From Candidatus Iainarchaeum sp. (GTDB lineage Archaea; Iainarchaeota; Iainarchaeia; Iainarchaeales; JAAZKV01), in contig JAQVAR010000001.1 in NCBI GenBank assembly GCA_028690725.1, positions 1 through 41,956 of the forward strand: 41,956 nt of DNA, given 5' to 3'. Positions within the stretch are counted from its first letter, which is position 1; every line of letters begins with the position of its first letter. Shown here one piece after another: positions 9,302 through 26,448 of this stretch. Below the pieces are notes generated by a model. The model did not search any database, had not been told where the DNA came from, and saw only the letters and a program-made list of their open reading frames with translations. A program made the position numbers and the translations under genes.

Positions 9302-10306
9302 TTATTTTTCTCCATTAATACCATAATATTCTTTTTTTACTATTTCAATATCAGAGTCAACCATTTCTCTTACTAACTCTTTAAATTTTGTTTTTGGTTC
9401 CCAACCCAATTTTTCTTTTGCTTTTGTAGCATCACCCAACAATAATTCTACTTCAGCTGGTCTAAAATATTTTTTATCAATTTCTATATAATCTTGATAA
9501 TTTAATTTTGCATAAGAAAATGCTTCTTCCAAAAATTCTTTTACAGAATGAGTTTCCCCAGTTGCTACAACAAAATCATCTCCTTTTTCTTGTTGTAACA
9601 TTAAATACATTGCTTCAACATAATCTTTCGCATGACCCCAATCACGTTTAGCATCCAAATTTCCTAAATACAATTTTTTTTGCAAACCAAATTTTATTCT
9701 TGCTATTGCCATAGTAATTTTTCTAGTAACAAAGGTTTCTCCTCTTCTTGGTGACTCATGATTGAAAAGAATACCATTACTAGTATACAAATCATATGAT
9801 TCTCTATAATTTTTTGTAATCCAATAACCATAAACTTTTGAACAACCATAAGGACTTCTAGGATAAAAAGGAGTATTCTCATTCTGAGGAGTTTCCAAGA
9901 CTTTTCCAAACATCTCTGAACTAGAAGCTTGGTAGAATTTTGTGTGAGGAGAAAATTGTTTTATTGCATCCAAACATCTTAGAACACCCAAACCAGTTAC
10001 ATTACTAGTATACTCTGGAATATCAAAACTAACTCTAACATGAGATTGTGCGCCAAGATTATAAAATTCATCTGGTTGAACTTCTCTTATTAAAGAACTA
10101 ATAGAACTAGGATCAGACAAGTCACCAAAATGCAATTTAAATTTTGAATTTAAATGAGGATCAACATACAAGTGGTCAACTCTCTCAGTATTAAAAGTAC
10201 TAGCCCTTCTCATTATCCCGTGGACTTCATAACCTTTTTCCAATAATAATTCTGCTAAATAAGAACCATCTTGTCCTGTTACACCAGTAATAATAGCTTT
10301 CTTCAT
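9302..10306 (-). CDS. gmd: GDP-mannose 4,6-dehydratase
   Basis: [75 protein letters not shown]. This is a textbook Gmd sequence. Confidence 0.95.
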
Positions 10307-10380
10307 GATAAATAATAAGAAGAATTTGTTTAAATAAGTTAGTGGTACAAAAAAATATTTTTTTTGTAATTTAATTAAAA

Positions 10381-10506
10381 TTATGCGTCTCTCCCAATAC
10401 CTTGTTTGTATAACACAAAATGACTTCCTTTAATATGGTGAACAAAATATTCTTTTGTTTCCAAAAATTTCATCATTTTTTCAGAAGAAATTCTTTTAAT
10501 TTTCAT
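10381..10506 (-). pseudogene. Truncated HicA-like toxin remnant (41 codons)
   Basis: My translation is [41 protein letters not shown]. It matches the N-terminal half of HicA/YcfA mRNA interferases (...KGSH...) but stops before the C-terminal half. No hicB partner lies next to it. Confidence 0.45.
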
Positions 10507-10533: not shown

Positions 10534-10567
10534 ATAAACTTAACTACTTTTTCGTTGATTGCCAAAA
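10534..10567. repeat. 34-bp direct repeat, copy A (ATAAACTTAACTACTTTTTCGTTGATTGCCAAAA)
   Basis: 32/34 identical to 11317..11350 in the same orientation. The similarity extends a few nt on each side if 2-nt indels are allowed. Confidence 0.8.
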
Positions 10568-10584
10568 AACAAAACTTTTTTATA

Positions 10585-10610
10585 TATTACTTAGTATTAC
10601 TTTGTATTAT
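10585..10610 (+). promoter_or_regulatory. Three phased 10-bp direct repeats (TATTACTTAG / TATTACTTTG / TATTATGG) between a TATA-like box and the RHH start codon; candidate operator
   Basis: Read directly from the sequence. TTTTTTATATATT at 10576-10588 is TATA-like, and the ATG at 10609 overlaps the third repeat. No Shine-Dalgarno motif is present, so the mRNA is probably leaderless. Confidence 0.45.
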
Positions 10611-10896
10611 GGAAACAATTAGTTTGAAGATTGATAAAGGAATGAGTAAAAAGATTTCTTTGTTAATGAAAGAATTCGATTTTTCTACAAAAACAGAGTT
10701 TATTAGAGAAGCAATTAGAAAAAATATTTCTAACTATGAATTAGAACAAAAAAAGAAAAAACAATGGGAAAAATTACTTGGAATGAAAGGAGCTTACAAA
10801 GGAAAAACAAAAGAAATGAATGATGACGAATGGGAAGACATGCGTAATAATCTAGCTAAAAAATTTGCAAAAGAACAATATGGGATAAAAATCTAA
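10609..10896 (+). CDS. Ribbon-helix-helix (CopG/VapB-like) DNA-binding protein
   Basis: METISLKIDKGMSKKISLLMKEFDFSTKTEFIREAIRKNI gives a beta-strand plus two helices, the RHH pattern. The track start at 10555 is a TTG inside the 34-bp repeat and adds an implausible hydrophobic extension. Confidence 0.7.
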   Translation: METISLKIDKGMSKKISLLMKEFDFSTKTEFIREAIRKNISNYELEQKKKKQWEKLLGMKGAYKGKTKEMNDDEWEDMRNNLAKKFAKEQYGIKI

Positions 10897-10899
10897 ATA

Positions 10900-11292
10900 T
10901 TATATTAATTCTTCTGGGAGTTTGGTCTCATTAAAAGATAATAAATGATTATCTCTTGAAACTAAAATAGCTTTGTTTGTTTTTGATAAAACGTAATGAA
11001 ATGCATCTCCAAAAGGAATTTGTTTTTCAATACTCAAACTTTTTATTTTTTCTAGATCATTTTTACTTGGAAATACTTCTTCAAGAATAAAACAAAAATC
11101 TTTGGATATTTCAAAAAAATCTAAACCATTATTCTTTAGTTCAAAAACAACCATTTTTGAAAACAAAACGTTGTTATTATTTTTTAAACACTTTTTAAAA
11201 AACTGGAAAGCAAATTCTCCTAATGGTTTTAAACCATCAAAACGATTATTAAAAAAATCAATCCAAATACAAGAATCAACATAATAATTCAT
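10900..11292 (-). CDS. PIN-domain nuclease (VapC-like)
   Basis: MNYYVDSCIWIDFFN (first acidic residue D6), VVFELKN, GDAFHY, LVSRDNH. All four PIN acidic positions are plausible. The ATG at 11290-11292 is preferred over the TTG at 11316. Confidence 0.75.
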   Translation of the reverse strand: MNYYVDSCIWIDFFNNRFDGLKPLGEFAFQFFKKCLKNNNNVLFSKMVVFELKNNGLDFFEISKDFCFILEEVFPSKNDLEKIKSLSIEKQIPFGDAFHYVLSKTNKAILVSRDNHLLSFNETKLPEELI

Positions 11293-11316
11293 AAAAAAAA
11301 CAAAATTAAATAACAT

Positions 11317-11350
11317 ATAAACTTAATTACTTTTTCGTTTATTGCCAAAA
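11317..11350. repeat. 34-bp direct repeat, copy B (ATAAACTTAATTACTTTTTCGTTTATTGCCAAAA)
   Basis: Second copy of 10534..10567, located just upstream of apt. Confidence 0.8.
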
Positions 11351-11382
11351 CAAATAAAAATCCTTTTTATGCCGAAATATTT

Positions 11383-11934
11383 ATGACTGAGAGTATAAAA
11401 AATAAGATTAGAACTATACCAAATTTTCCAAAACAAGGAATAATGTTTAGGGATATAACAACATTGTTAAAAGATAAGGATGGTTTGAGAGAAGTAGTAG
11501 AAATACTAGAAAAAAAATACAAGGATATTGAATTCGATTATGTTGTTGGGATAGAATCAAGGGGTTTTATTATTGGAGGGATTTTAGCACACAAATTAGG
11601 AATAGGATTTATTCCAATTAGAAAAAAAGGAAAATTACCTTCAGAAGTAATCAAAGAAGAATATGATTTAGAATACGGAAAAGATGTTATAGAAATACAC
11701 AAGGATTCGTTAAAAAAAGGAGATAAGATTTTATTATTAGATGATTTGATTGCAACAGGAGGAACAGCATTAGCTTCTTGTAAACTAATAGAAAAAGTTG
11801 GCGCTATTGTAGAAGAATGCGCATCCATAATTGACTTACCAGAATTAGGTGGCTCAAAAAAAATTAATGATTATTTGAAAAAAAATGATGATGAAAAAAA
11901 AGTGTTTTCAATAGTACAATTTGAAGGAGAATAA
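11383..11934 (+). CDS. apt: Adenine phosphoribosyltransferase
   Basis: [36 protein letters not shown], and the PRPP loop [13 protein letters not shown]. Confidence 0.95.
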
Positions 11935-11951
11935 AACAAATTGGTGATTAA

Positions 11952-12692
11952 ATGATTGCAATTATTGGTGGTTCTGGTTTAGAAGATCCAGAATTGTTAA
12001 AAGAATCAGAAGAAATTATCATTGAAACCCCTTTTGGAAAACACTCTCCAATAAAAAAAGGTTTTATTGAAGGAATAGAAATTGCAATATTATCTAGACA
12101 TGGTTACAAACACGAATATTCCCCTAGTTCAATTCCATACAAAGCAAATATTTTTGCACTAAAAGAATTAGGAGCAAAAGCAATAATTGCTACAAGTGCT
12201 TGTGGTTCTCTAAGAGAAGAACTCGTTCCAGAAAGTATTAGTTTCCCATCACAATTCATTGATAGAACAACAAAAAGAGATTCTAGTTATACTGAATTTG
12301 GAAATGTTATACACGAAGGACATAGTGATCCTTTTGACAAAAAATTAAGAGAAATACTTGTAAAAAAAAGTAAAGAAATTGGAATAGAATATAGTGCTGA
12401 TACTACTCTTATAACAATAGAAGGCCCAAGATTTTCTACAAGAGCAGAAAGCGAGTATTTTAGAAAATTTGATTTTGATTTGATTAACATGACTACTGTA
12501 CCAGAAGTTTGTCTAGCAAAGGAGTTAAAGATACCATACCAAGTAATAAATTTGATAACGGATTATGATTGTTGGAAAGAAAATGAGGAAGCAGTTACAT
12601 TTGAAATAGTATTAGAAAGAATGAAAAACAATAGTGAAAAAGTAAAAAAAATTATTTTAAAATCGTTAAAAGAAATTGACAAAGAATTCTAA
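11952..12692 (+). CDS. mtnP: S-methyl-5'-thioadenosine phosphorylase (MTAP/PNP family)
   Basis: IAIIGGSGL, LSRHGYKHEYSPSSIPYKANIFALKELG, SACGSL, QFIDRTTKR, IEGPRFSTRAES, INMTTVPE, TDYDCW. A GGTGA Shine-Dalgarno motif lies 5 nt upstream. Confidence 0.9.
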   Translation: MIAIIGGSGLEDPELLKESEEIIIETPFGKHSPIKKGFIEGIEIAILSRHGYKHEYSPSSIPYKANIFALKELGAKAIIATSACGSLREELVPESISFPSQFIDRTTKRDSSYTEFGNVIHEGHSDPFDKKLREILVKKSKEIGIEYSADTTLITIEGPRFSTRAESEYFRKFDFDLINMTTVPEVCLAKELKIPYQVINLITDYDCWKENEEAVTFEIVLERMKNNSEKVKKIILKSLKEIDKEF

Positions 12693-12707
12693 TTAAGGTG
12701 AGAAAAA

Positions 12708-12833
12708 ATGATGGGAAAAAAATTAGTTTTAAAAGCAGTTGAAATTGAAATGCAAGAAGTAATAAATGGAAACATAAAAACAAAACCATTTAATGAATTA
12801 AAAAAGAAATTTTATTGGCAAAAAATATATTAA
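12708..12833 (+). CDS. Small hypothetical protein (41 aa)
   Basis: Not in the ORF track. AAGGTGA at 12695-12701 is followed 6 nt later by an ATG. Translation: MMGKKLVLKAVEIEMQEVINGNIKTKPFNELKKKFYWQKIY*. It fills the mtnP-truD gap. I recognise no family. Confidence 0.35.
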   Translation: MMGKKLVLKAVEIEMQEVINGNIKTKPFNELKKKFYWQKIY

Positions 12834-12846
12834 ATTAAGTGTTAAA

Positions 12847-13830
12847 ATGAATTATAATCTAAAACCAGAAACTTTTTTTGTAGAAGAAGATTACAAACCA
12901 AGATTAAAAGAAGAAGGCAAATATTTGTATTATGTTATAGAAAAAAAAGGTTTGAGTCACAAACAATTAATAAAAAGAATTCCAAAAGATGCATTATTCA
13001 ATGGTTTAAAAGACAAAAACGCAACAACAAAACAATGGTTTTGTACTAAACAAACAATAGAAAATATTTTTGAAAAAGATTTGAAAATAGAATACAAAGG
13101 AAAAAGTGATGAAAAAATATTTATTGGAAAACACAAAGGTAATAAATTTAAAATATTGTTAGAATTAAAAGAAAAAGAATTAAAAAAAATTAAAAAAATT
13201 AATTGGAAGAAAGAATTAATAACAAACTATTTTGGAAAACAAAGATTTGACAAAAGAATAAACAAATTCAATGAATTATTAGAAAAAAAAGATTTTGAAA
13301 ACGCATTAAAATTTTTTTTAACAGAAAAAAGTGATTATGATACACAAAAAAGCAGTGAAATAAAAAAAGAAATATTTACAAATTGGAATAATTGGAAAAA
13401 ACTTATTGAATCAAATATCCCAGAATCAAAAAAACCAATTTTTGAATTATTAGAAAAAGAAAAAGATTTTGAAAAAGCTTTTATGCTAACAGAAAAAAAA
13501 AGTTTAAAACAAATGCTAAAAGCAGTACAAGCAAAAAAATGGAACGAACTTCTACATAAGCAAATTTTGTTTTTTGTTGCAAACAATTTAGAAGGAAAAA
13601 AAGCTTCTAGGAATATTAAAAACAAATTAATATTAGAAGGAAATGATTTTGAAAAAAAATTTGGTTTAAATAAGTTAGACAGAGAAACATATTTTAAAAT
13701 AAAAAAATTCAAAATAAAAAAATCTAACAAGAAAAACAATTTTTGGATAGAATTTTATTTGAAAAAAGGTTGTTACGCAACAATTTTTATAGAATACTTA
13801 GAAAAAATTTTAACAGCGGCAAGAAACTAG
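12847..13830 (+). CDS. truD: tRNA pseudouridine synthase D (TruD/Pus7 family), compact form
   Basis: N-terminal PETFFVEE, catalytic-Asp motif GLKDKNATTKQWF, and NYFGKQRFD (compare TruD NYFGxQRFG). Confidence 0.75.
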   Translation: MNYNLKPETFFVEEDYKPRLKEEGKYLYYVIEKKGLSHKQLIKRIPKDALFNGLKDKNATTKQWFCTKQTIENIFEKDLKIEYKGKSDEKIFIGKHKGNKFKILLELKEKELKKIKKINWKKELITNYFGKQRFDKRINKFNELLEKKDFENALKFFLTEKSDYDTQKSSEIKKEIFTNWNNWKKLIESNIPESKKPIFELLEKEKDFEKAFMLTEKKSLKQMLKAVQAKKWNELLHKQILFFVANNLEGKKASRNIKNKLILEGNDFEKKFGLNKLDRETYFKIKKFKIKKSNKKNNFWIEFYLKKGCYATIFIEYLEKILTAARN

Positions 13831-13866
13831 GCACAAATTTTTAAAAGAAAATAAAACAATAACAAT

Positions 13867-14301
13867 ATGAGAATTTATTTAGATACATGTATTTGGTTAA
13901 ACATTTTTAACAAAAATGAAAAAAACGAAGAATTTAATGAATCAAAAAAATTAATAGAAAAATTATTATTTGAAAAAAAATTTGATATTTTTTATTCTGG
14001 ATTTATATTAAAAGAAATGCAATTCAAATTAAGTGAAACAGAATTTTTAAAAAAAAGAGATTTTTTTAGAAATGAAAAAATAATTTTTTTAAAAGCAACA
14101 AATGAAGATTATAATTTAGCAAGAAAATTCGAAATAGATAATAATTACAAAATAAGTTTTTTTGATTATTTACATACAAGTATTTGTATAAATAATAATT
14201 TGATTTTAATAACCAGAGACAAAAAATTATTAGTATTTACAAAAACAAAAATAATTGCATTAAAACCAATAGAATTACTTCAAAGAATTAATTTCTTGTA
14301 A
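13867..14301 (+). CDS. PIN-domain nuclease (VapC-like), paralog of 10900..11292
   Basis: MRIYLDTCIWLNIFN, ILKEMQ, FFDYLH, LITRDKK. Same YxDxCIW ... (S/T)RD pattern as the first PIN. Confidence 0.75.
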   Translation: MRIYLDTCIWLNIFNKNEKNEEFNESKKLIEKLLFEKKFDIFYSGFILKEMQFKLSETEFLKKRDFFRNEKIIFLKATNEDYNLARKFEIDNNYKISFFDYLHTSICINNNLILITRDKKLLVFTKTKIIALKPIELLQRINFL

Positions 14302-14520
14302 TTCACTTTTTTTAATAGATAATTTTTTTCTTATCTCACGAACTTCTTTAACCGAACTTTTTTCCAAACTAATCGATTTTAATTGTTCTTCAAAAACCAT
14401 TTTTCTAATTGCACCTCTAATGAAATCTGATTTATTCTCAAAATTTCCAAAATTAACAATTTTATCAATTTCTTTAACCAATTTTTTAGGCAATCTTGCT
14501 TGAACCAAAACCATACTCAT
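14275..14520 (-). CDS. Ribbon-helix-helix (CopG/VapB-like) protein, paralog of 10609..10896
   Basis: MSMVLVQARLPKKLVKEIDKIVNFGNFENKSDFIRGAIRKMV. Shares (S/T)(D/E)FIRxAIRK with the first RHH. Its 3' end overlaps the convergent PIN gene by 27 nt. Confidence 0.7.
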   Translation of the reverse strand: MSMVLVQARLPKKLVKEIDKIVNFGNFENKSDFIRGAIRKMVFEEQLKSISLEKSSVKEVREIRKKLSIKKSELQEINSLK

Positions 14521-14546: not shown

Positions 14547-14585
14547 AAAACCTTTTTAAAATTAAGTAATAAAAAACTTAGAAAA

Positions 14586-15236: not shown

Positions 15237-17861
15237 TTGGGTGTTTGGTTGGACAAAAAATTTTTTATAATACTAATTTTAATAGGAATAATTTTTTTTA
15301 GTGGAAACGTTTTAGCAGAACCAAGCATAACAATCAATGGCGGAGAAACACACACTAATGATAATGATGTTATAGCTAGAATACTAAATACTGAAGATAT
15401 CAATTATTGTGTTACTCTATCAGACAATAATAATAATTGTGAGTGGATACTTTCAGAATTAGATGATATTAATATTGATATTACTCTTACAGGTGATGAT
15501 GGGGGAAAAGAAGTTTTTTTACACACCAAAAATAATTTGGTTTATGATACTAAGAGTGATACCATAATTCTTGATACTACTGGGCCAGTAATAACAGTAA
15601 ATGGAGTAACAGATGAAAACTATTACGATAATAATGTTTTCGCAATAACTATTGAAGCAGTTGATGCTAATGTTGGTAAATATAATGGAAAAATAACTTA
15701 TTCGTTAAATGAAAGTGATAAAAATATTTATTCTAGCCAAATTGATTGGACTCTTGAAGAAGGAAATTATGTTCTAGTTGTAGATGCAAATGATGATTTA
15801 GGAAATATTTCAACCAAAACAATTTCTTTCATAGTTGATATTACTGAACCATTATTATTAGGCGTGTTAAATGATTATTCCGGAATTGGTTCGTATACTA
15901 ATAGTGTAATGCCAACATTTACAATTTCTTTAGAAGAAGATAACCCAGACAAAATATTTTTTAGTTGTAGTAATGGTAGCAATTGGTTTGAAAGAAATTA
16001 TAATTCTACTATAAATGATTTTAATATTGTCTCAAGTAGTTATGATTGTAATAATGATGATGGAACTAAAACAATTTATGTAAAAATAAATGACAAATTT
16101 GGAAATACTGCAGGGCCAGTTACCACTACAATTAATTATGATGGAACATCACCAGCACCCCCAACAGGATTGAGTGTTAGTAATGGAAATAAAGAAGTAA
16201 CTGTTAGTTGGAATGCACCAACAGCAGATAATTTATCAGGAAACAAAGAATATGAAGTTTACAAGAATGGTGATTTGTATGCCACAACAACAAGCACTAG
16301 TAAAACTGTTACAGGTTTAACAAATGGGACTAATTACTCTTTCAAAATAAAGACAATTGACAATGCAGGTAATAAAAGTAGTTTTAGTTCAACTATTTCA
16401 GGAACACCACAATCATGTTCTTGCGAACTAACAATAAAAAGAAGTGGAACAAGCGTTGAATATGTTAAAGGTGGAGACAATTTACTAATTAGTTGTAACT
16501 GGGAAGAAGAAGTTGATGACGCAAAAATAAGATATAGATATTATGATGGAAGCTGGGAATCACTACAAAATTTGAGTAGTGAAGAAGACAACACTGATTT
16601 CATAGAAGAAAATATTAGTATTAATGGTAATAATGAGAGAATAGAATTTCAATGTATTGCTAGTAATGTTGAAACAAAAACAAAAACCATTTATATTGAC
16701 AACGAATTACCAACAATACAATGGAATGTTATAGATTCAACATTAAAAGAAACAAGAGAAATATCAGCAAATATTACTGATAATAAAAATATTAAGAGCG
16801 TTGAATTCGAATTAAATTCAGTAAAACATAACCCTACCAAAAGTGGAAACAAATATTATTTTAATTTGGACACAACAAAAATTGCTAATGGAACATATTC
16901 ATTAAAAGTAAGTGCTATTGATGAAGCAGGAAACCAATCACAAAAAACTACTACAATAACAATAGAAAACTTGTTAACAGAAGAACAAAAAAGAATAAAA
17001 GCAATTAATGATGCGAAAACAAAAAAAGTAATAGTAGACGACTTGATAAAATATTATGAAGAAAGAGGATTAAAACTAAGCGAAGAAATGCTAGGAGAAA
17101 AACAAAGAGCAGATGACTTATTAGAAGAAGCAGAAGAAACAGATAATAATACTGTTTCAAAAACAAAAGCAGAAGAAGCAAAAAGCATTTATGATAATAT
17201 AAATGAAAAAATTGTTTTCGAAAATGTTGAGAGCAAGAATTATGAATACGAAAAAGAAAATTTAACATTGTTATTATCAGGAATTGGATTAATAGGAGAA
17301 CAATTAGAACAAGCAAAAAATAATATTTTAGAAGGAAATGTTGAAAGAAAAATAACAATAATAAAAATTGGAGAAGAATATAGAGCACAAATAGAATTGA
17401 GTTTTGAATTAGGAGAAGAAGATTATATTATAGTAGAAGTTATTCCAAAAGAGTTTGTTGAAAACGCATCAAAAATATTTTCAAACACAGATTTTAACAT
17501 AATAGAAGATGATCCAGTAATAGAATTTTTAATAACAAAAGATATTAAAAAAATTTTTTACAGTATTGATGTAAAAGAAGAAGATGCAAATACATTAATG
17601 GATAATAATGTTATTGACTTATTTGCTTCACCACCAATAATATTAAAGGCTAATGAAAAAATAAGTATTGTTAAAGAAAATGGAATGTTTTTCATAATTC
17701 TAATAATTATTATACTAATAATAATATTGATTTGTGGAATAGGTTTCTTTGTTTTAAAAAATAACAAAAATGATTTTGGAAAAAACAACCCAATAGGAAA
17801 AATGAAAGAAAAATTATTAAAACCAGAAGAAAAGAAAAAGGATTGGAAGTACAAAGGGTAA
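15237..17861 (+). CDS. Secreted, C-terminally membrane-anchored surface protein with Ig-like repeats, one fibronectin type III domain and a coiled-coil stalk
   Basis: Sec-type N-terminus DKKFFIILILIGIIFFSGNVLA|EPS. FN3: PAPPTGLSVSNGNKEVTVSWNAPT...YEVYKNGD...TGLTNGTNYSFKIKTIDNAGN. K/E-rich helical region around 16980-17400. C-terminal transmembrane segment MFFIILIIIILIIILICGIGFFVL followed by a basic tail. The start is TTG (15237 or 15249); there is no in-frame ATG. Confidence 0.8.
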   Translation: MGVWLDKKFFIILILIGIIFFSGNVLAEPSITINGGETHTNDNDVIARILNTEDINYCVTLSDNNNNCEWILSELDDINIDITLTGDDGGKEVFLHTKNNLVYDTKSDTIILDTTGPVITVNGVTDENYYDNNVFAITIEAVDANVGKYNGKITYSLNESDKNIYSSQIDWTLEEGNYVLVVDANDDLGNISTKTISFIVDITEPLLLGVLNDYSGIGSYTNSVMPTFTISLEEDNPDKIFFSCSNGSNWFERNYNSTINDFNIVSSSYDCNNDDGTKTIYVKINDKFGNTAGPVTTTINYDGTSPAPPTGLSVSNGNKEVTVSWNAPTADNLSGNKEYEVYKNGDLYATTTSTSKTVTGLTNGTNYSFKIKTIDNAGNKSSFSSTISGTPQSCSCELTIKRSGTSVEYVKGGDNLLISCNWEEEVDDAKIRYRYYDGSWESLQNLSSEEDNTDFIEENISINGNNERIEFQCIASNVETKTKTIYIDNELPTIQWNVIDSTLKETREISANITDNKNIKSVEFELNSVKHNPTKSGNKYYFNLDTTKIANGTYSLKVSAIDEAGNQSQKTTTITIENLLTEEQKRIKAINDAKTKKVIVDDLIKYYEERGLKLSEEMLGEKQRADDLLEEAEETDNNTVSKTKAEEAKSIYDNINEKIVFENVESKNYEYEKENLTLLLSGIGLIGEQLEQAKNNILEGNVERKITIIKIGEEYRAQIELSFELGEEDYIIVEVIPKEFVENASKIFSNTDFNIIEDDPVIEFLITKDIKKIFYSIDVKEEDANTLMDNNVIDLFASPPIILKANEKISIVKENGMFFIILIIIILIIILICGIGFFVLKNNKNDFGKNNPIGKMKEKLLKPEEKKKDWKYKG

Positions 17862-17926
17862 TTAAAAAAATATAAAGAACAAGATTTGATTAAATTAATA
17901 AGCTTTAAAGAGCACTAATTTGTAAT

Positions 17927-20674
17927 ATGAATACTGCAGCAATAATAGGAGCAGGACCAGCTGGATTGATAACAGCAATAAAATTGAAAAAAGAGGGTTT
18001 TGATTCTATCATTTTAGAAGAACATGAAGAAATTGGTTCACCAGAAAACTGTTCAGGATTAGTATCAAGAAAAGGTTTAGAAGAACAAAAAATTAATTTT
18101 GAAGAAACAATACAAAACAAGATAAGAGGAGCAAAAATTTTTTCTCCAAATGGAACAGAATTAAAAATCACTAGACCAGAAACAATCGCTTATGTTTTAG
18201 ACAGAAAAAAATTTGATTTAGAATTATTAAAAAAAGCAAGACAAATGAATATTCATGTAGCAACTAACACCAAATTATTGGATGTTAGAAAAAATACTCT
18301 TTTTGTACAAGCAAACGGGAGAGGAGAAATGAGAAAAGCAGAATATATTGTGGGAGCAGACGGAGTTAATTCTACTGTAAGACATTTGATTGGAACACAA
18401 ACAAATAGAAACAATTTTGTTCATACAATACAATCAACGTGCATAGGAGAATTTGAAAAAGAATATGTTCAATTATACTTAGGAGATTATGCAAAAGGAT
18501 TTTTTGCATGGGTAATACCAATAGATGAAAAAAAAGCAAAAATTGGATTAGGAAATATTTTAGGAGAAGATGTTACTAAAAATTTTAAACAATTTTTAAC
18601 AGAAAAAATGCCAAATGTAAAAGTATATTCTACAAAATCATCATTGATTCCATACGGAGCACCATTAGAAGGAATACAAAAAGAAAATTTAGCATTAGTT
18701 GGAGATGCAGCATTCCAAACAAAAGCAACTAGTATTGATTATGAAGAGCCTATTTTGTTAATGGACGACAACGGATTTATTAGGAATAATAAAATAGGTG
18801 AATTAGTTGATAAAGAACTAACCAATCCTGAAAACGAGATTATTATTTCAGAAAATAATGAAATAGTATCTACTAAGAATGAAATCAAAGCATTTTCACC
18901 CTCAAGAAATGCTAATACAAATAAATTTAGAACCATAAAGACAATGCTTAGGCATAAAATTGAAGAAGATTTATACGAAGTCGAATTACAAAAAGGATAT
19001 AAGGTTAAAGCCACTGCAAGCCACAGCATAATGGTTGTTACACAAAATGGTTTTGAAGAAAAATACACAAATCAAATTATTCCAGGAAAAGATATTATTG
19101 CATTAAATGCAAATATTCCAAAAGGAAAAATGATTCATGAAATTAATCTAATAAAAGAATTTTTAGTACATGATAAAGAATTTTCAAAACAAATACAAAT
19201 ATTAGGAGAAAAAGAAAAGATTTATTCTAATTATTTAGAAGTAAATAAAAACAAAATTACTCAACACTGGTATAATAATATAATCCCATTAAACAAGTTT
19301 ATAGAAAAAGGAATATTGCCTGATAATTCAATAATCTCGATTAAGAAAAGTAAGTTTAATTATAAAAACAAATTACAAATTACGCCTGAATTTTGTAGAC
19401 TTCTTGGATATTTTATAGCAGAAGGATCATTTAAAAATAATAATTTAACTATGACTTTTGGAATGAATGACATTAAAAAAGGAGTTGTTAATGATGCATT
19501 GTTTTGTATAGAAAAAAGTCTTGGAATTAAAGCTGAAAAACCAACTATAAAATTTAATCCTTTAACAAAAAAAGAATCGGCAGTATCAATTACATTTGGT
19601 GGAACAATAGCTATGAAATTATTTGAGATTATTGATACAGGAAGAGGTGCTAAGAATAAACAAGTCCCTTGGATTATTTTTAATGTTGAGGATGAACTAA
19701 AAATTGAATTTTTAAAAGGTTATTTTAGAGGTGATGGAACTTTAAGAATTCGAATTGGAAAAAATTCAAGGAATGATTCTATTGAATTATCAGCAAAAAC
19801 AATTAGTAAAAAACTTATTAGCGATTTAATAATTATTTCAATGCAACTAAATTTATTCCCATCAATTGAAAGCGAGAATAAAAAAGAACACACAATTCTT
19901 GAAAAAAAAGTTAAATTACAACCAAGTTATAGAATTGTCTTCTCAAGAATACAAGATATAAAAAAGTTGATTGATATATTTCCAGAAATGAAATCAAAAT
20001 GCTTGGCTTTTTTAGAAAACAAGAAAAGTAGAGAAACAATTAGTTTACCAATAGAATTACTAAGTACACAATCTATTAAATCACAAGAAATGAAATCCAT
20101 TTTTGGAAGCAATATTCAAGATTATAATAACTTAGGTTATCAAAGATTAAAATTAGCCACAAAAAATAATGTATGTGAAAACGAATTTATTAATAATTTA
20201 ATAAAACAAGGCATAATCTTATTAAAAGTTAAAAAAATAAACAAAATTAACCCTACAACAAAATATGTGTATGATGTTGAAATTCCAGAAACACAAATGT
20301 TTTGTGGCGGAATGGGACCAATATTATTACACAACACGGGAGGAGGAGTAGTATTCGGGATGAGAGCAGGAAATATTTTGGGAGAAACAATTGCTAACAC
20401 AATCAAAAAAAAATCTAAATTAAGCGATTACGAAAAAAATTTGAAAGAAATAAACAAGGAATTGAGAATGCATTGGAAAATAAGAAAATATGTTAACGAA
20501 TTAAGCAACGAACAAATAAACAAATTATTTGAAAAATTAAAATCAAAAGGAATAGAAGAATTTTTAGAAAAAGAAGGAAACATGGACGAACCAAGCAAGT
20601 TTATTGGAAAACTAGCAAAAAAACCAGCATACTGGTTCATGGCAAAAACATTACTTGGAATAGCAAGAAGCTAA
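17927..20674 (+). CDS. Geranylgeranyl reductase family FAD-dependent oxidoreductase (digeranylgeranylglycerophospholipid reductase-like), interrupted by an intein
   Basis: N-extein: AAIIGAGPAGLITAIKL (GxGxxG), EYIVGADGVNSTVR, LALVGDAAFQTKAT. C-extein: TGGGVVFGMRAGNILGE. The exteins total about 380 aa, the normal length for this family. Confidence 0.9.
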   Translation: MNTAAIIGAGPAGLITAIKLKKEGFDSIILEEHEEIGSPENCSGLVSRKGLEEQKINFEETIQNKIRGAKIFSPNGTELKITRPETIAYVLDRKKFDLELLKKARQMNIHVATNTKLLDVRKNTLFVQANGRGEMRKAEYIVGADGVNSTVRHLIGTQTNRNNFVHTIQSTCIGEFEKEYVQLYLGDYAKGFFAWVIPIDEKKAKIGLGNILGEDVTKNFKQFLTEKMPNVKVYSTKSSLIPYGAPLEGIQKENLALVGDAAFQTKATSIDYEEPILLMDDNGFIRNNKIGELVDKELTNPENEIIISENNEIVSTKNEIKAFSPSRNANTNKFRTIKTMLRHKIEEDLYEVELQKGYKVKATASHSIMVVTQNGFEEKYTNQIIPGKDIIALNANIPKGKMIHEINLIKEFLVHDKEFSKQIQILGEKEKIYSNYLEVNKNKITQHWYNNIIPLNKFIEKGILPDNSIISIKKSKFNYKNKLQITPEFCRLLGYFIAEGSFKNNNLTMTFGMNDIKKGVVNDALFCIEKSLGIKAEKPTIKFNPLTKKESAVSITFGGTIAMKLFEIIDTGRGAKNKQVPWIIFNVEDELKIEFLKGYFRGDGTLRIRIGKNSRNDSIELSAKTISKKLISDLIIISMQLNLFPSIESENKKEHTILEKKVKLQPSYRIVFSRIQDIKKLIDIFPEMKSKCLAFLENKKSRETISLPIELLSTQSIKSQEMKSIFGSNIQDYNNLGYQRLKLATKNNVCENEFINNLIKQGIILLKVKKINKINPTTKYVYDVEIPETQMFCGGMGPILLHNTGGGVVFGMRAGNILGETIANTIKKKSKLSDYEKNLKEINKELRMHWKIRKYVNELSNEQINKLFEKLKSKGIEEFLEKEGNMDEPSKFIGKLAKKPAYWFMAKTLLGIARS
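18731..20335 (+). mobile_element. Intein (535 aa) with a LAGLIDADG homing-endonuclease domain
   Basis: In frame. Starts with Ser (SIDYEEPILLMDDNG, block A). Block B is KATASHSIM (TxxH). The two dodecapeptide motifs are LLGYFIAEGSF and FLKGYFRGDGTL. Blocks F/G are KYVYDVEIPETQMF...ILLHN, followed by Thr at +1. Confidence 0.85.
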
Positions 20675-20741
20675 AAAAACAATGTTTTAATTTATAATAC
20701 AAAAACAAATTTTTATAAATCTCAAAACACTCTATTAATAC

Positions 20742-23537
20742 ATGTTTTTTTCCAATAAAATCCAAAAAATAATAAAAGATTTTTTTTCATTAAAACAAAA
20801 AACCTTTGGAAAAAAAATAATTGCACAAGGAACAATTGAATATCTAATTATTATTGCTATAATAGTTGTTATTGGACTAGTGGTAGTAGGATTAACAATG
20901 GAATTGTTTGACAACCAACAAATAGGACAATCACTAGGACAAATAAAAGGACAAACAGGAACAAGCGGAATAACAATAATGGATTCTGTTGCAGGATTAG
21001 ATTCTAATGGCTTACTAGTTTTAAAAAATTCTAATCCAGAAACCTTAACAATAAACACTATTATTATTGATGATGAAGAACACAATTATGATTACTCTTT
21101 ACCAATGGGTTCACAAATGGGATTCAAATTACAAAATATTGCTAATTGCGATGGAACAACAAAAAATTATACAATAATAATAGAATACACTACTAATTAT
21201 GGATTGGAAAAAACCATTAACTTAGGAACAATAACAATTGATTGTGCAGAAACAGTAGAACCAACAAAAAAATTTATAGAAAAAATAGAAGAAGAAATAA
21301 TTTACATAGTTTCTTTTGATAGTCAAGAAGCTGACACAAATGCTAACCCAACAAGTATGATTGTTATACCACCAGAAACAACAATAGAAGAATTACCAAC
21401 AGAACCACAAAAAGAAGGATATATTTTTGGAGGATGGTACACTCAAATTAATGGGGGAGGAACAGAATTTACTACAAACACTATTATAGATAACAACATT
21501 ACTGTCTACGCTTATTGGAGTGATTGTGAAGAAGGAGAATTTTTGTTTGAGGGAGAATGTATAGCATGTATTAATGGAGAAGGAATAGATTTTTTTGGTG
21601 GAACAGGAGAAGAAGAAACACCATATCAAATATGTGATTGGAACCAATTAAATAATGTTAGATATTACCTTGATGCTAATTTTATTTTAATTAATAATTT
21701 GAGTAATAAAACAAGTAATTATGAAGGAATAGGAGATGATTTCGAACCAATAGGATATGGAACAGGGTGGAATTATTCAATATTTACAGGAATTCTTGAT
21801 GGAAATGAACATACAATAAGTAATTTGAAAATAAATAAACCCGATGATTCGTATATTGGTTTGTTTGCGTACTTAGATTCTGAAAGCAAAATAAAAAATA
21901 TTGGTTTGATTGACATTAATATTGTTGGTCTTGGTTATACTACAAGTTTTGCAGGCAGAATACAAAATGGGTTAATTGAAAATAATTATGCAACAGGAAT
22001 AATCACAAGTATTTCTTTCAGCGCTGGTGGGATAACAGGAGTCCAATATAACGGAACAATAAATAATTCTTATTTCACAGGAACAATTATTGGTGGTAAT
22101 GGTACCGGAGGAATAACAGGAGTTCACTATGGTGGTACGATTGAAAATTCTTACATGACAGGAAACATAACTAGCCCTTCTAATATGGGAGGAATAGTTG
22201 GTTTAAAAAGTGGTGGAACAATTGAAAATTCTTATTATGATTATGAAAATGTTTTAATAAATGGAGAAAATATTTTAACAATTGGTGCTCTAACAAACGA
22301 AAATTTTGATTTTTGGATTGAAAATGACAAATTTTTTGATGTTGATAATTATTTAACAAAAGAAGGAGAATATTATTTAATAAATAATGTTTCAGATTTA
22401 GAAAAATTATTAATTTTTGGGCAAGATTCTTCTCTAAATTTTAAAATACAAAATAATTTAGATCTTACTGGAAACGAAGGACTTTACATACCATATTTAG
22501 CAGGAAATTTAGAAGGAAATGATAAAAACATTTTAAACCTAAAAGTAAATCTTCCTCTTGTTTCAAATATTGGATTATTTGGTTACACAATAGGAAACAT
22601 TTCAAATATTGGTGTAATAGATGCAAATGTTATTGGAAGAAGATATGTTGGAGGTTTAGCAGGAATAACAAACGGAACAATTGAAAATATATATGCAACA
22701 GGAAACGTAACTGGTTACGAAGATGAAATTGGGGGGTTAATAGGATATCAAATTAGTGGAACAATCACAAACTCTTACACAACAGGAAATGTAACTGGGG
22801 GCAATACTGTTGGAGGATTAGTAGGAAGTTTAAAAGGAATAATTACAAATTCTTATACAACAGGAAATACAATAGGAGGGCATAATACTGGAGGGTTAGT
22901 GGGAAATTCTTATGGAACAATTTCAACTTCATACACAATAGGAAATATAGAAGGATATTATGGAGTTGGAGGGATATCCGGAAGACAAATGGGCGGGTTA
23001 ATTGAAAAATCTTATTCAACAGGAAACAAAACAGGTGAAGACGGAGGCATTGGAGGAATAGTTGGATACCAACAAGGAGGACTTATTTCTAACACTTATG
23101 CAATAGGAACAAATACAGGAAATAATAGTGTTGGAGGAATTACAGGAGTACAAACAGGTGCCAAAATTGAAAATTCTTATGCAATAGGAAACATAAATGA
23201 TATTAGTTGGTTTGCTGGTGGGTTAATAGGAATACAATATGAAACAGGAACAATTGAAAACGCATATGCAACAGGAAACGTAACTGGCGACAATTCAGTT
23301 GGTGGGTTAGTTGGATTTTCCAGTGGAACAATCACAAATTCATATTGGGATACAATATTAAGTGGGCAATCCAATTGTTATCGCGATGGTAATATTGGTT
23401 GTACATCAACAACAAATAATGAAACATATTATTATAATTCTAGTAATTCACCATTAAGTTCATGGACATGGGGAATAGACGGAAATTGGACTACAAGAGA
23501 CAATAATTATCCAATATTAACCTGGCAAACACAATAA
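20742..23537 (+). CDS. Giant pilin-like surface protein: class III (prepilin-type) signal peptide, conserved N-terminal module, Listeria-Bacteroides repeat, and GLUG-type repeat array
   Basis: KKIIAQGTIEYLIIIAIIVVIGLVVVGL; VSFDSQ...PQKEGYIFGGWYTQ...ITVYAYW; many repeats of about 26 aa in the form NSY-TGN-TG---VGGL-G---G-I; C-terminal YPILTWQ. Confidence 0.85.
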   Translation: MFFSNKIQKIIKDFFSLKQKTFGKKIIAQGTIEYLIIIAIIVVIGLVVVGLTMELFDNQQIGQSLGQIKGQTGTSGITIMDSVAGLDSNGLLVLKNSNPETLTINTIIIDDEEHNYDYSLPMGSQMGFKLQNIANCDGTTKNYTIIIEYTTNYGLEKTINLGTITIDCAETVEPTKKFIEKIEEEIIYIVSFDSQEADTNANPTSMIVIPPETTIEELPTEPQKEGYIFGGWYTQINGGGTEFTTNTIIDNNITVYAYWSDCEEGEFLFEGECIACINGEGIDFFGGTGEEETPYQICDWNQLNNVRYYLDANFILINNLSNKTSNYEGIGDDFEPIGYGTGWNYSIFTGILDGNEHTISNLKINKPDDSYIGLFAYLDSESKIKNIGLIDINIVGLGYTTSFAGRIQNGLIENNYATGIITSISFSAGGITGVQYNGTINNSYFTGTIIGGNGTGGITGVHYGGTIENSYMTGNITSPSNMGGIVGLKSGGTIENSYYDYENVLINGENILTIGALTNENFDFWIENDKFFDVDNYLTKEGEYYLINNVSDLEKLLIFGQDSSLNFKIQNNLDLTGNEGLYIPYLAGNLEGNDKNILNLKVNLPLVSNIGLFGYTIGNISNIGVIDANVIGRRYVGGLAGITNGTIENIYATGNVTGYEDEIGGLIGYQISGTITNSYTTGNVTGGNTVGGLVGSLKGIITNSYTTGNTIGGHNTGGLVGNSYGTISTSYTIGNIEGYYGVGGISGRQMGGLIEKSYSTGNKTGEDGGIGGIVGYQQGGLISNTYAIGTNTGNNSVGGITGVQTGAKIENSYAIGNINDISWFAGGLIGIQYETGTIENAYATGNVTGDNSVGGLVGFSSGTITNSYWDTILSGQSNCYRDGNIGCTSTTNNETYYYNSSNSPLSSWTWGIDGNWTTRDNNYPILTWQTQ

Positions 23538-23640
23538 AAAAAAAACAACAAAATATATAAATACTATAAACAAATTATATATAAAGTAGAAAACAAAATT
23601 TAATAAAAAAATTATATTTTAAAAGTATTTAGGTGTCTAA

Positions 23641-26448
23641 TTGAAAAAAAATATTAAAAAAGAATTTGTTGCACAAGGAACAATAGAATATCTGACAATA
23701 ATAGGAGTAATTGTTGTTATTGGTTTGGTTGTTGTTAGCTTGTTAACAAATGTTTTTGATGATACACAAAATATTTCTTCTACAACAACAAAGATTAGTT
23801 CAATCACAGGAATAATTAGCATCAGTGAAACAATTGTTGATAATGAAGGAAATGGTTTAATTGTTTTATCAAACAATTCTAATGAAACACTAACAATAAA
23901 AAGTTTGAGTATTAATGGTGTTAACATAGATTATCCAAATACTATTTTGACTCAAAGTGTTGAAAAAATTTTTAGTTTAAATAGTTTGGATGATAACTGT
24001 TCTTGTGTTGGTTTTGAAGGTAAAATGAAAACTTGTGAAATAACAATTTATTATACTTCTAAATATGGTTTAGAAAAACAGGTTACAACAAATATTGTTG
24101 TTGATTGTGTTGATGAAGCAACTCCAAAAAATTTATCTAATTTGATTCTACCAACTTCATCAAGAACATATGAAATAATGTTTAACATAAAAAATTCTTC
24201 CACTAATTTACATTTAACTGATTTTAATATTAATTGTAATGATGAAACACATAATTTTACTAACCAAGAATCTCCTACATTAATTGATTTTAATGGAGGG
24301 GTTTATTCTTGTGATTTTTCAAAATTAGGTTATGATTCAAATAACATAACAATAAACGCTAATAGTGACAAAAATATTGATGTTTATTTAACTCAACAAA
24401 GTGAATTATTATCAAATTGTGGTACATTAGATGCTGAAAAAATTTATTTTTTGGAAAATGATATTGGTTCTGGCGAAAATTGTTTGATAATTGAATCAAA
24501 TAATATATTAATAAATGGTAACAGTCACACAATAACAGGAAATATTGTCGCAGATGGTGCAGAAGGAATAGCTGCTTATACAGGATTATCGTTATCTAAC
24601 ATTAATGTTGTTGGAACAGTAAGTGCAATCGGAGGAGGAGGCTCAAACACAGCAGGCTCAGGAGGAACAGTAACAGTAACTAATAATTCTAATATAACAA
24701 CAATAAATACAACGGGAGGATGGAACACGTATAGTACTCCTGGTGAAGGAGGAGCAGTAACAATAACAGATTCTAATGTAGAAACAATAACCACAACTGG
24801 GGGAGCAGGACATTTTAATCGACCAGGTGAGATAGCTGGGGCAGTAACACTTACTAATTCAATTATAGAGACAATAACAGCAAAAGGAGGAAATGGCACA
24901 TATAGTGGTGGAAAAGCAGGTGGAATAATAACAGCAAATAATTCAGTTATAATAACTATTGATGCAACAGGCGGATCAGGAGGACACCAAGGTGCTGGAG
25001 GAGCGGGAGGAACAATAACATTAACAGATTCTAATATTGTGACAATAATTTCTTTAGGAGGAAATGGCGCTTATGGGGCAACAGCAGGAGCTGGTGGAAC
25101 AATAACATTAACTGATTCAAATACAACAACAATAACAGCAACAGGTGGATCAAGTAGTGGACCAGGCGGAGCAGGAGGAACAATAACATTAACTAATTCC
25201 AATATAAAGAAAATAAATACTATTGGTGGGAATGGAAATTATGGAGGAGTAGGAGGAAATGTTAATATAATTTCCCAAAATTTAGATTTATCAAATATTG
25301 AGATAGATATTAATTATGGATCTGGAGACCCACATCACGATTCAGGAACACTTATACTCAATTTTTCAAATTCTTTTACAGATACTGGAGCTAGTTATAA
25401 CAAAAATTTAAAAGGATTAAAAATTGTTCGTAGTGGAGTCGGAGAAATTTATTGGAATGAGACCAGTATATGCGAAGGAACACCAGATAATTCAAATTGT
25501 TCTCAATGGGGTGGGTCTTGGAATGAAGAACAATGTACTAGATATGAAAACCGCGGAGGACAATGTACTTGGCCAGAACATTCTTGTATAGATGTCAGTG
25601 GAGGAGATTGCAGTAATGCTTATGATGAATCAGAATGTCTTAATAACATATACCCAACAGGATGCGACACTTGGATTCCTGGAGTTTGTGAAGATGTAGG
25701 CGGAGGAAGTTGTACAGGAGCATGGGATGAATGGGAATGTATTTATATGAAATATCCTTCAGGATGTAATTGGACACCAAATCCTATTTCTTGCATGTAT
25801 GCTCCCGGGCCAGGTTGTGTAGAAGGATCATTTTCTTGTGATGATTGTATTAATGAATCTAGTTGTAGTGTTTGTGGTGGATGGTGGGGAAGCGAAGGAG
25901 GAATTTGTGAAGGAACAGGAAGCGGATGCGAAGGAGCAACAAATAGTATGTGGTGTAATGATTATTCAGGTTGTGAATGGTCGTTAGGTTGGGAAGAAGG
26001 AATTTGTGAAGGAACAGGAAGCGGATGCGAAGATTTAAACAACTATAATAGTTGTTGGAATTATTCAGGTTGTTCATGGTTCGGAGACCCTTGTACTGGA
26101 ACAGTTACTTGCGAAGCACAAATTTCACTTGAAGCTTGCCAAGAAATAACTGGTTGCGCATACTCTGCAAGTAGTATTGATTCATCCTCTTTTACAAATT
26201 TATCAAATAATATTATAATTGAACAAAATTCTGTTTATTTAAATTCTACTGCTATACCTTCTTTAAATATTGATGCTAATATTACTCTTTATTTAACTGG
26301 ATTAGAAATTACAAATCCACAAGTATTAAAAGATGGAATTGAATGTAATTCTCCTAGTTGTGAAATATTAAGTTATGATTCTGAAATAATTATATTTAGA
26401 GTAACAAGTTGGGATAATGCAATATATACTATTGCAGAATCATCATAA
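23641..26448 (+). CDS. Giant pilin-like surface protein: class III signal peptide, the same N-terminal module, Gly-rich beta-helix-like repeats, and a Cys-rich repeat domain
   Basis: TTG start 5 nt after AGGTG. MKKNIKKEFVAQGTIEYLTIIGVIVVIGLVVV. Repeats of the form GG-G...GAGGTITLTDSN--TI. About 30 Cys between 25471 and 26157. Confidence 0.85.
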   Translation: MKKNIKKEFVAQGTIEYLTIIGVIVVIGLVVVSLLTNVFDDTQNISSTTTKISSITGIISISETIVDNEGNGLIVLSNNSNETLTIKSLSINGVNIDYPNTILTQSVEKIFSLNSLDDNCSCVGFEGKMKTCEITIYYTSKYGLEKQVTTNIVVDCVDEATPKNLSNLILPTSSRTYEIMFNIKNSSTNLHLTDFNINCNDETHNFTNQESPTLIDFNGGVYSCDFSKLGYDSNNITINANSDKNIDVYLTQQSELLSNCGTLDAEKIYFLENDIGSGENCLIIESNNILINGNSHTITGNIVADGAEGIAAYTGLSLSNINVVGTVSAIGGGGSNTAGSGGTVTVTNNSNITTINTTGGWNTYSTPGEGGAVTITDSNVETITTTGGAGHFNRPGEIAGAVTLTNSIIETITAKGGNGTYSGGKAGGIITANNSVIITIDATGGSGGHQGAGGAGGTITLTDSNIVTIISLGGNGAYGATAGAGGTITLTDSNTTTITATGGSSSGPGGAGGTITLTNSNIKKINTIGGNGNYGGVGGNVNIISQNLDLSNIEIDINYGSGDPHHDSGTLILNFSNSFTDTGASYNKNLKGLKIVRSGVGEIYWNETSICEGTPDNSNCSQWGGSWNEEQCTRYENRGGQCTWPEHSCIDVSGGDCSNAYDESECLNNIYPTGCDTWIPGVCEDVGGGSCTGAWDEWECIYMKYPSGCNWTPNPISCMYAPGPGCVEGSFSCDDCINESSCSVCGGWWGSEGGICEGTGSGCEGATNSMWCNDYSGCEWSLGWEEGICEGTGSGCEDLNNYNSCWNYSGCSWFGDPCTGTVTCEAQISLEACQEITGCAYSASSIDSSSFTNLSNNIIIEQNSVYLNSTAIPSLNIDANITLYLTGLEITNPQVLKDGIECNSPSCEILSYDSEIIIFRVTSWDNAIYTIAESS

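Follow-up and report, generated by a model that had tools for sequence, protein, structure and literature searches.

Convergent PIN nuclease and ribbon-helix-helix gene pairs in DPANN archaea: VapBC-like proteins in a tail-to-tail layout

Two tail-to-tail gene pairs in an Iainarchaeum contig

The stretch of DNA analysed here (contig JAQVAR010000001.1 of Candidatus Iainarchaeum sp., assembly GCA_028690725.1, positions 1 to 41,956; hereafter the window) carries two pairs of small genes, each composed of a gene for a PIN-domain nuclease and a gene for a ribbon-helix-helix (RHH) protein, which lie on opposite strands with their 3' ends facing. The window has a G+C content of ~25%, and its nearest relatives are metagenome-assembled DPANN archaea belonging to the Iainarchaeota, Woesearchaeota, Pacearchaeota and Nanoarchaeota. 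Genes of the PIN2/RHH2 kind (pair 2) are referred to as type A and those of the PIN1/RHH1 kind (pair 1) as type B. A preliminary description, made from the sequence alone, had placed four open reading frames (ORFs) at these positions and had described both pairs as tail-to-tail; this is confirmed, with 3 nucleotides (nt) between the stop codons of pair 1 and an overlap of the coding regions in pair 2:

10609..10896, plus strand: RHH1, type B ribbon-helix-helix partner, 95 amino acids (aa) (ORF, weak RHH_8/RHH_1 matches and homologue alignment)
10900..11292, minus strand: PIN1, type B PIN-domain nuclease, 130 aa (PF01850, E 2e-5; D/E/D/D columns shared with the PIN2 family)
13867..14301, plus strand: PIN2, type A PIN-domain nuclease, 144 aa (PF01850, E 2e-10; AlphaFold2 model)
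14275..14520, minus strand: RHH2, type A ribbon-helix-helix partner, 81 aa (RHH_1, E 2.5e-7; N-terminal RHH domain and conserved C-terminal helix)
14275..14301, both strands: 3' ends of the PIN2 and RHH2 coding regions, overlapping by 27 nt, read from the sequence

Two of these starts were set by homology. The ORF list begins RHH1 at a TTG at 10555, and the ATG at 10609, which matches the homologues, was adopted; likewise, the PIN1 ORF reaches 11316 and its start was placed at 11292, where the homologues begin (MNYYVD).

The two pairs are related to each other through both of their genes, as the preliminary description had proposed. PIN1 and PIN2 share 27% identity over their full length (E 1e-7), the N-terminus of RHH1 shares 33% identity with RHH2 over 40 aa (E 5e-5), and the motifs quoted at the time (YxDxCIW, S/TRD, PxEL and FIRxAIRK) are all found. 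When 31 PIN sequences, PIN1 among them, are aligned, the four acidic residues of the PIN active site (D6, E50, D100 and D118) never vary, and both nucleases thus possess the PIN domain and the catalytic acids expected of a VapC. The AlphaFold2 model of PIN2 (pLDDT 93.7) finds its best matches in the PDB among VapC/FitB toxins and stand-alone archaeal PIN proteins, with template modelling (TM) scores of 0.66-0.74; the top matches include the VapC of VapBC2, FitB, and VapCs of Shigella and M. tuberculosis. In sequence the family is remote from the solved VapCs. PIN1 has 22 homologues, and the PIN family comprises 373 clusters at 50% identity among 1.84 billion proteins at E <= 1e-10, or 1010 clusters at E <= 0.001.

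The partner proteins are conserved beyond their DNA-binding domain. Of 22 RHH family members, 21 match RHH_1 and 20 match RHH_8. Type A RHH proteins are conserved over their full length, with a motif after the domain that reads approximately GSIPNTGDSVKEIRxIRKKLSKEKxDLxEINKL. Their N-terminal domain has sequence matches to the N-terminal domain of NikR and to ParD antitoxins, and weak fold matches to these same proteins. In the model of RHH2, helices span residues 12-23, 30-49 and 56-80; the last of these, predicted at moderate confidence, is the C-terminal helix conserved among type A proteins as DSVKEIRxIRKKLSKE. RHH1 matches RHH_8 and RHH_1 below threshold only, and it aligns with 10 homologues, each of them convergent to a PIN1-type gene.

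Gene geometry across relatives

The orientation of the pair was surveyed in loci encoding a relative of PIN2, of which 80 came from species-representative genomes and a further 80 from metagenomes; PIN and RHH ORFs were located in them by profile searches. These 160 loci hold 166 PIN ORFs, 158 of which are resolvable:

157 of 166 PIN ORFs: RHH gene directly downstream, on the opposite strand
8 of 166: unjudgeable, the contig ending <=165 nt downstream of the PIN gene
1 of 166: a second, solo PIN gene, head-to-head with the RHH gene of the neighbouring pair (L050)
0 of 166: PIN and RHH genes co-directional

Convergence was also found in 8 extra loci reached by exact protein look-up and read from public gene calls (7 of type B, and 1 of type A reached via its RHH protein); taking survey pairs and looked-up loci together, all 12 distinct type B loci are convergent. 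The preliminary description had argued that a geometry preserved in both copies is unlikely to be an accident of rearrangement, and had named mostly co-directional homologues as the finding that would count against it. The survey came out the opposite way, and the geometry is preserved far beyond the two copies of the window, which argues against a local rearrangement accident. The small DNA-binding partner adjacent to the toxin gene that is expected of a VapBC system is present (RHH_1/RHH_8; 157 of 158 loci), and the expected one-strand, antitoxin-first operon is found neither in the survey nor in the extra loci. No conserved co-directional small ORF lies upstream of the PIN gene in the survey loci, where clusters never exceed two members, and therefore no classical VapB is hidden there. 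Among the other adjacent gene pairs of the same loci, 21% are convergent, and the HicAB, AbiEi/AbiEii and HEPN-MNT modules on related contigs are ordinary co-directional operons; the tail-to-tail layout is therefore a property of this family, not of these genomes or of the window.

Two loci of the survey deserve mention in their own right. The sole exception to the layout (L050, 1478-2796) consists of a PIN gene, its convergent RHH gene and then a second PIN gene lacking a downstream RHH gene of its own. At L066 (4421-4700, minus strand), the RHH gene sits in the usual place and is frameshifted after 36 codons, reflecting either decay or an assembly error; this contig is binned as a bacterium of the candidate phyla radiation (Dojkabacteria), the sole non-archaeal label among the 80 genome loci.

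The junction between the two genes is as regular as their orientation. The overlaps are mostly multiples of three, 12 nt being the commonest (74 loci), followed by 6 nt (33) and 9 nt (17), and the close relatives L001-L004 overlap by 24-27 nt as pair 2 does. Of the other convergent pairs in the survey loci, a quarter overlap and 46% have gaps >30 nt. In the overlap, the stop codon of either gene, reverse-complemented, gives the conserved C-terminal Leu codon of its partner (TTA NNN NNN TAG, or TTATAA); the junction AAACCGGAAGAA-TTA-CTT-ACC-TAG, for example, encodes ...PEELLT* in one direction and ...INKLGK* in the opposite one. Across 134 unique pairs, the distances among PIN proteins correlate with those among their RHH partners (r = 0.79, Mantel p <= 0.001), which fits co-inheritance, some correlation being expected of any two linked genes.

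Promoters, predicted transcript ends and neighbourhood

It had been proposed from the layout that each gene must have its own promoter, and a TATA-like element is indeed predicted upstream of each of the four genes. Operator-like repeats accompany the RHH promoters:

10576-10586, plus strand: predicted TATA element of RHH1, TTTTTTATATA, read from the sequence
10585-10611, plus strand: three tandem 10-bp TATTACTT(A/T)G repeats upstream of RHH1, the third partial (TATT) and running into the ATG
11314..11322, minus strand: TATA-like box of PIN1, GTTTATATG, ~30 nt upstream of the ATG, with no ATTAC repeats
13837..13847, plus strand: TATA-like box of PIN2, ATTTTTAAAAG, 20-30 nt upstream of the ATG and right after the TruD stop codon
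14529..14546, minus strand: perfect 18-nt palindrome GTATTACAATTGTAATAC, a putative RHH operator, between the RHH2 TATA region (~14551-14563) and the ATG

The same architecture recurs in relatives. In most of 11 aligned type B loci, a TATA element followed by tandem TATTACTTAG repeats (10-bp) is clear upstream of the RHH gene, the repeats being degenerate in L019 and L167. Relatives of pair 2 carry two ATTACA repeats ~11 bp apart where RHH2 has its palindrome. When RHH upstream regions are aligned at the start codon, a purine-rich AAAG resembling the transcription factor B recognition element, a consensus TATA and two ATTACA repeats ~11 bp apart follow one another down to the ATG. Repeats spaced by one helical turn between the TATA element and the start are in the classical position for an RHH repressor. 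The contrast with the PIN side is marked: TTTAWAWA is present at -30..-35 in 98 of 130 RHH upstream regions vs 7 of 141 PIN upstream regions, and GTAnTAC in 72 of 130 and 1 of 141, respectively (1.6% of random windows). Of 127 modules, 48 carry the tandem repeat upstream of the RHH gene on the sense strand, and 5 more carry it on the antisense strand of that region; elsewhere in the modules it is absent upstream of and inside PIN genes and occurs once inside an RHH coding region (antisense).

The PIN genes have promoter features of their own. A loose TATA is found at -27..-31 in 100 of 141 PIN upstream regions, and its location at about -28 suggests leaderless transcripts. Type B relatives have their TATA at the distance seen in PIN1, a conserved T-rich stretch before the ATG and a conserved upstream GGCAATnnAC. 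Two further motifs were observed in type A loci. The palindrome TTCCGGA(A) is present in 20 of 141 type A PIN upstream regions against a background of 0.8% (e.g. L014, L061, L099 and L110), 45-60 nt before the PIN start codon and some 15 nt ahead of the PIN TATA. A separate factor controlling the nuclease gene may bind there; the PIN2 promoter of the window lacks this palindrome. Of 129 loci, 12 carry the motif GG(C/T)ACAAAAA 57-65 nt upstream of the type A RHH start (background 0.6%; e.g. L084, L085, L160 and L154); a similar GTGGTACAAAAAAA is found in the window at 10344-10357, just upstream of a GDP-mannose dehydratase gene (9302..10306, minus strand) and not of an RHH gene.

Oligo-T tracts are the usual termination signal in archaea. 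A tract of at least five T (T5+) lies <=60 nt past the stop codon of the PIN gene in 100 of 138 loci and of the RHH gene in 83 of 138, vs 41% of control antisense positions. In the window the candidate terminators fall within the partner's coding region:

14307-14313 and 14323-14329, plus strand: two T7 tracts within the RHH2 coding sequence, 6-28 nt past the PIN2 stop, at which the PIN2 mRNA may terminate
14221..14251, minus strand: T5, T5 and T6 tracts within the PIN2 coding sequence, 24-54 nt past the RHH2 stop, at which the RHH2 mRNA may terminate
10887-10891 (A5) and 10858-10863 (A6) on the plus strand, both reading as T on the opposite strand, and 10980-10984 (T5): first tracts of pair 1

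If transcripts end at such tracts, the mRNAs of pair 2 would share roughly 60-110 complementary 3' nt and those of pair 1 about 100-125.

Throughout the survey, the neighbourhoods of PIN-RHH pairs vary widely; several contigs carry two pairs, and pairs adjoin HicAB, AbiE and HEPN-MNT modules, behaviour that resembles an accessory toxin-antitoxin system. Relatives in the clade of the window keep both pairs in synteny around TruD, at identities down to about 45%. In the window itself, PIN2 starts 36 nt past TruD (12847-13830, same strand), and genes for APRT and MTAP lie between pair 1 and TruD. Other toxin-antitoxin (TA) modules have been inserted or lost in the TruD interval within this clade, and the interval behaves as a hotspot for TA modules. 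Loci in which TruD is flanked by TA-type modules are the window, L001, L004, L164, L165 and L177; the flanks consist of type A and type B PIN-RHH pairs on either side in L165, of AbiEi/AbiEii in L001 and of HEPN-MNT in L177. Viral contigs yielded no relative, and PADLOC defence models gave no match; an origin from mobile elements was considered and rejected.

Several other features surround the pairs:

10534..10574, plus strand: left copy of a 41-nt direct repeat flanking pair 1, 88% identical to 11317-11357
11317..11357, plus strand: right copy of the 41-nt direct repeat, overlapping part of the PIN1 TATA box and containing GGCAATnnAC
10381-10506, minus strand: HicA-like ORF, 41 aa, ending in ...KQGIGRDA (weak PF07927 match)
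15237-26448, plus strand: four successive ORFs of 874-935 aa, whose counterparts in L164 and L165 have bacterial Ig-like and fibronectin-type domains

The two copies of the 41-nt repeat (2 matches around pair 1 vs 0 expected by chance) bracket the pair exactly, each inside a divergent-promoter intergenic region. In the relative L161 the repeat occurs only once, on the PIN side, and the left copy is therefore a duplication confined to one lineage. At the position of the HicA-like ORF, the relatives L001 and L161 encode a full 74-aa HicA followed by HicB; the ORF of the window is thus the remnant of a truncated toxin whose antitoxin has been lost. The four large ORFs probably encode tandem surface proteins. 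Searches for known non-coding RNAs in the window gave neither an Rfam match nor a tRNA.

A proposed nuclease-inhibitor module under separate control

On balance, we consider it somewhat probable that each pair is a VapBC-like module, composed of a PIN nuclease and an RHH inhibitor, in which convergent genes uncouple the transcription of the two partners and the RHH protein represses its own gene. In the scheme we propose, an RHH dimer would bind the ATTAC repeats and shut the strong RHH promoter, repressing the RHH gene alone; the architecture of this promoter is conserved and the binding is deduced from it. The PIN gene would be driven by a weaker, operator-free promoter, whose sequence architecture is likewise conserved. 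By analogy with antitoxins of the VapB, FitA and ParD type, the C-terminal helix of the RHH protein would bind the PIN protein and block it; both the toxicity of the nuclease and its neutralisation by the RHH protein are proposed on this basis. If PIN-bound RHH protein binds the operator less well, the nuclease would titrate free RHH and the RHH promoter alone would open, yielding more inhibitor without more nuclease, so that the supply of inhibitor would follow the nuclease load. In addition, each mRNA would end at oligo-T tracts within the partner's coding region, giving complementary 3' ends, and strong RHH transcription could lower PIN mRNA further through polymerase collision or duplex formation, by analogy with type I systems whose RNAs overlap at their 3' ends and with the facing promoters of restriction-modification systems. 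Such coupling at the RNA level, which the preliminary description had read from the layout as mutual antisense or transcriptional interference, is, taken alone, doubtful.

Several observations weigh against this scheme or parts of it. In the window alone, ATTAC pairs are no commoner than in shuffled sequence, and their weight comes only from a position conserved across loci. The last 25-30 codons have the same AAA/AAG ratio as the gene body, giving no sign of selected antisense T-tracts, and the tracts may simply reflect Lys-rich C-termini. The sequencing runs for the window are of landfill metagenome DNA, and the metatranscriptomes of the study that yielded the relative L168 contain nothing from the locus. 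The VapC model NF047959 of NCBIfam gives PIN2 17.5 bits and PIN1 13.3 bits (cut-off 80). Covariation between the two proteins, computed as mutual information with average product correction over 134 pairs (effective number 105), is not enriched in the RHH C-terminal helix; the top positions join RHH residues 43-49 with PIN residues 63-74 and probably represent a lineage signal. The synteny around TruD makes a domesticated resident look likelier than a mobile addiction module, and PIN2 in the window might be transcribed by read-through from TruD.

The layout could also be a frozen accident: an ancient inversion would have placed the two genes of a normal protein-protein TA system tail-to-tail, interlocked stops and co-inheritance would have hindered its undoing, and the 3' overlap would play no regulatory role. 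The reverse-complementary stop and Leu codons suit this view, as coding constraint alone would lock such a junction, and so does the lack of a codon-level sign of selected antisense terminators; cis-antisense complementarity would moreover be automatic and leave no sequence signature. We nevertheless regard a frozen accident as unlikely, given a layout that extends to 157 of 158 loci plus 8 others, to two subfamilies 27% identical and to several DPANN phyla, and a spacing far tighter than that of the other convergent pairs (46% with gaps >30 nt). The PIN and RHH promoters have also diverged systematically and in a complementary manner, and therefore at least the uncoupled transcription has been maintained. 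Still less probable is that the pair is no TA system at all, the RHH protein being a small transcription factor with a general role, like CdrS or aCcr1, and its PIN neighbour a housekeeping or regulated RNA-processing nuclease linked to it for co-regulation. The best NCBIfam match of RHH2 is CdrS (E 4e-10), with a faint match to aCcr1, and these regulators resemble it in their RHH_1-type DNA-binding domain and similar size; however, the scores are far under the equivalog cut-offs (39.6 bits vs 100 and 15 bits vs 60, respectively) and cover the generic RHH domain only, and the additional conserved C-terminal helix is specific to the PIN-RHH family. CdrS and aCcr1 are not known to be paired with a PIN gene. 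Full-length conservation of the RHH protein across DPANN archaea, vertical synteny beside TruD in the clade of the window and the absence of matches to known defence-system models would all suit a core regulator, but a patchy, often multi-copy pair with variable neighbourhoods, beside other TA modules, would not be expected of one. Operator-like repeats are, moreover, confined to the RHH gene's own promoter, bar chance-level matches, when modules, their surroundings and the window are searched. That one ORF of each pair is an antisense shadow, with the real partner elsewhere (e.g. a classical upstream antitoxin), is effectively refuted. A naive longest-ORF caller did choose a long plus-strand ORF antisense to RHH in 16 loci, but a coding overlap of 4-27 nt means that neither ORF shadows its partner; both products match Pfam domains and are conserved as proteins, public gene callers predict the same two genes, and no conserved ORF upstream of the PIN gene, nor any cluster of more than two members, provides another partner.

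The preferred reading, a VapBC-like module with uncoupled transcription, can be set against characterised systems. With VapBC and FitAB the pairs share the PIN fold with four conserved acids, an adjacent small partner made of an N-terminal RHH domain and a C-terminal helix, operator-like repeats at the partner's promoter, and multi-copy occurrence in variable contexts. Those systems are antitoxin-first operons, whereas the PIN-RHH pairs are convergent with overlapping 3' ends; furthermore, PIN1 and PIN2 score far under the cut-off of the NCBIfam VapC model, and operator-like repeats mark the RHH promoter only, so that from its sequence the PIN promoter would escape antitoxin-mediated repression. 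In the type I TA systems Fst RNAI/RNAII and BsrG/SR4, facing promoters produce RNAs overlapping at their 3' ends, and a 123-bp duplex in BsrG/SR4 triggers degradation of the toxin mRNA (PMC3874152). The overlap predicted here from sequence for PIN and RHH mRNAs is similar in size to that duplex, and the gene geometry and T-tracts would fit convergent transcripts of this sort. However, the type I antitoxin is a non-coding antisense RNA and the toxin a small hydrophobic peptide, whereas both PIN-RHH transcripts encode conserved globular proteins of 81-144 aa. The restriction-modification systems EcoRI and Eco29kI are regulated by antisense RNAs and by facing promoters, whose mutual inhibition can work as a switch (PMC3874152). 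The likeness, a harmful nuclease and a protective partner under separate promoters, is an analogy of circuit logic only, since the proteins are unrelated, protection is by DNA methylation and the reverse promoters lie inside the operon. In summary, the pair is made of known domains and resembles VapBC in its proteins, departs from VapBC in operon structure and falls outside the type I systems. Full-text searches of a literature collection lacking most subscription journals yielded no account of convergent PIN-RHH pairs.

A bolder and rather improbable extension of the preferred reading is a hybrid of type I and type II logic, in which the RHH mRNA would encode inhibitor and self-repressor while its 3' end would act in cis against the PIN mRNA, as antisense or by collision, and the PIN mRNA likewise against the RHH mRNA, forming a two-layer toggle. 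If true, this toggle would set the nuclease-to-inhibitor ratio without the conditional cooperativity of operon-type systems, and selection for it would explain the near-invariant overlap across DPANN archaea.

An operon of two genes on the same strand is the usual definition of a type II TA system and the usual target of searches for one. A family that is nearly always convergent would therefore presumably be missed by such searches, and as it is sizeable (at least 373 clusters at 50% identity, E <= 1e-10), the number of TA systems in DPANN archaea may be higher than is currently estimated. The layout also offers a test case for the consequences of uncoupling toxin transcription from antitoxin autoregulation, and for mutual regulation by the overlapping 3' ends of two archaeal protein-coding mRNAs.

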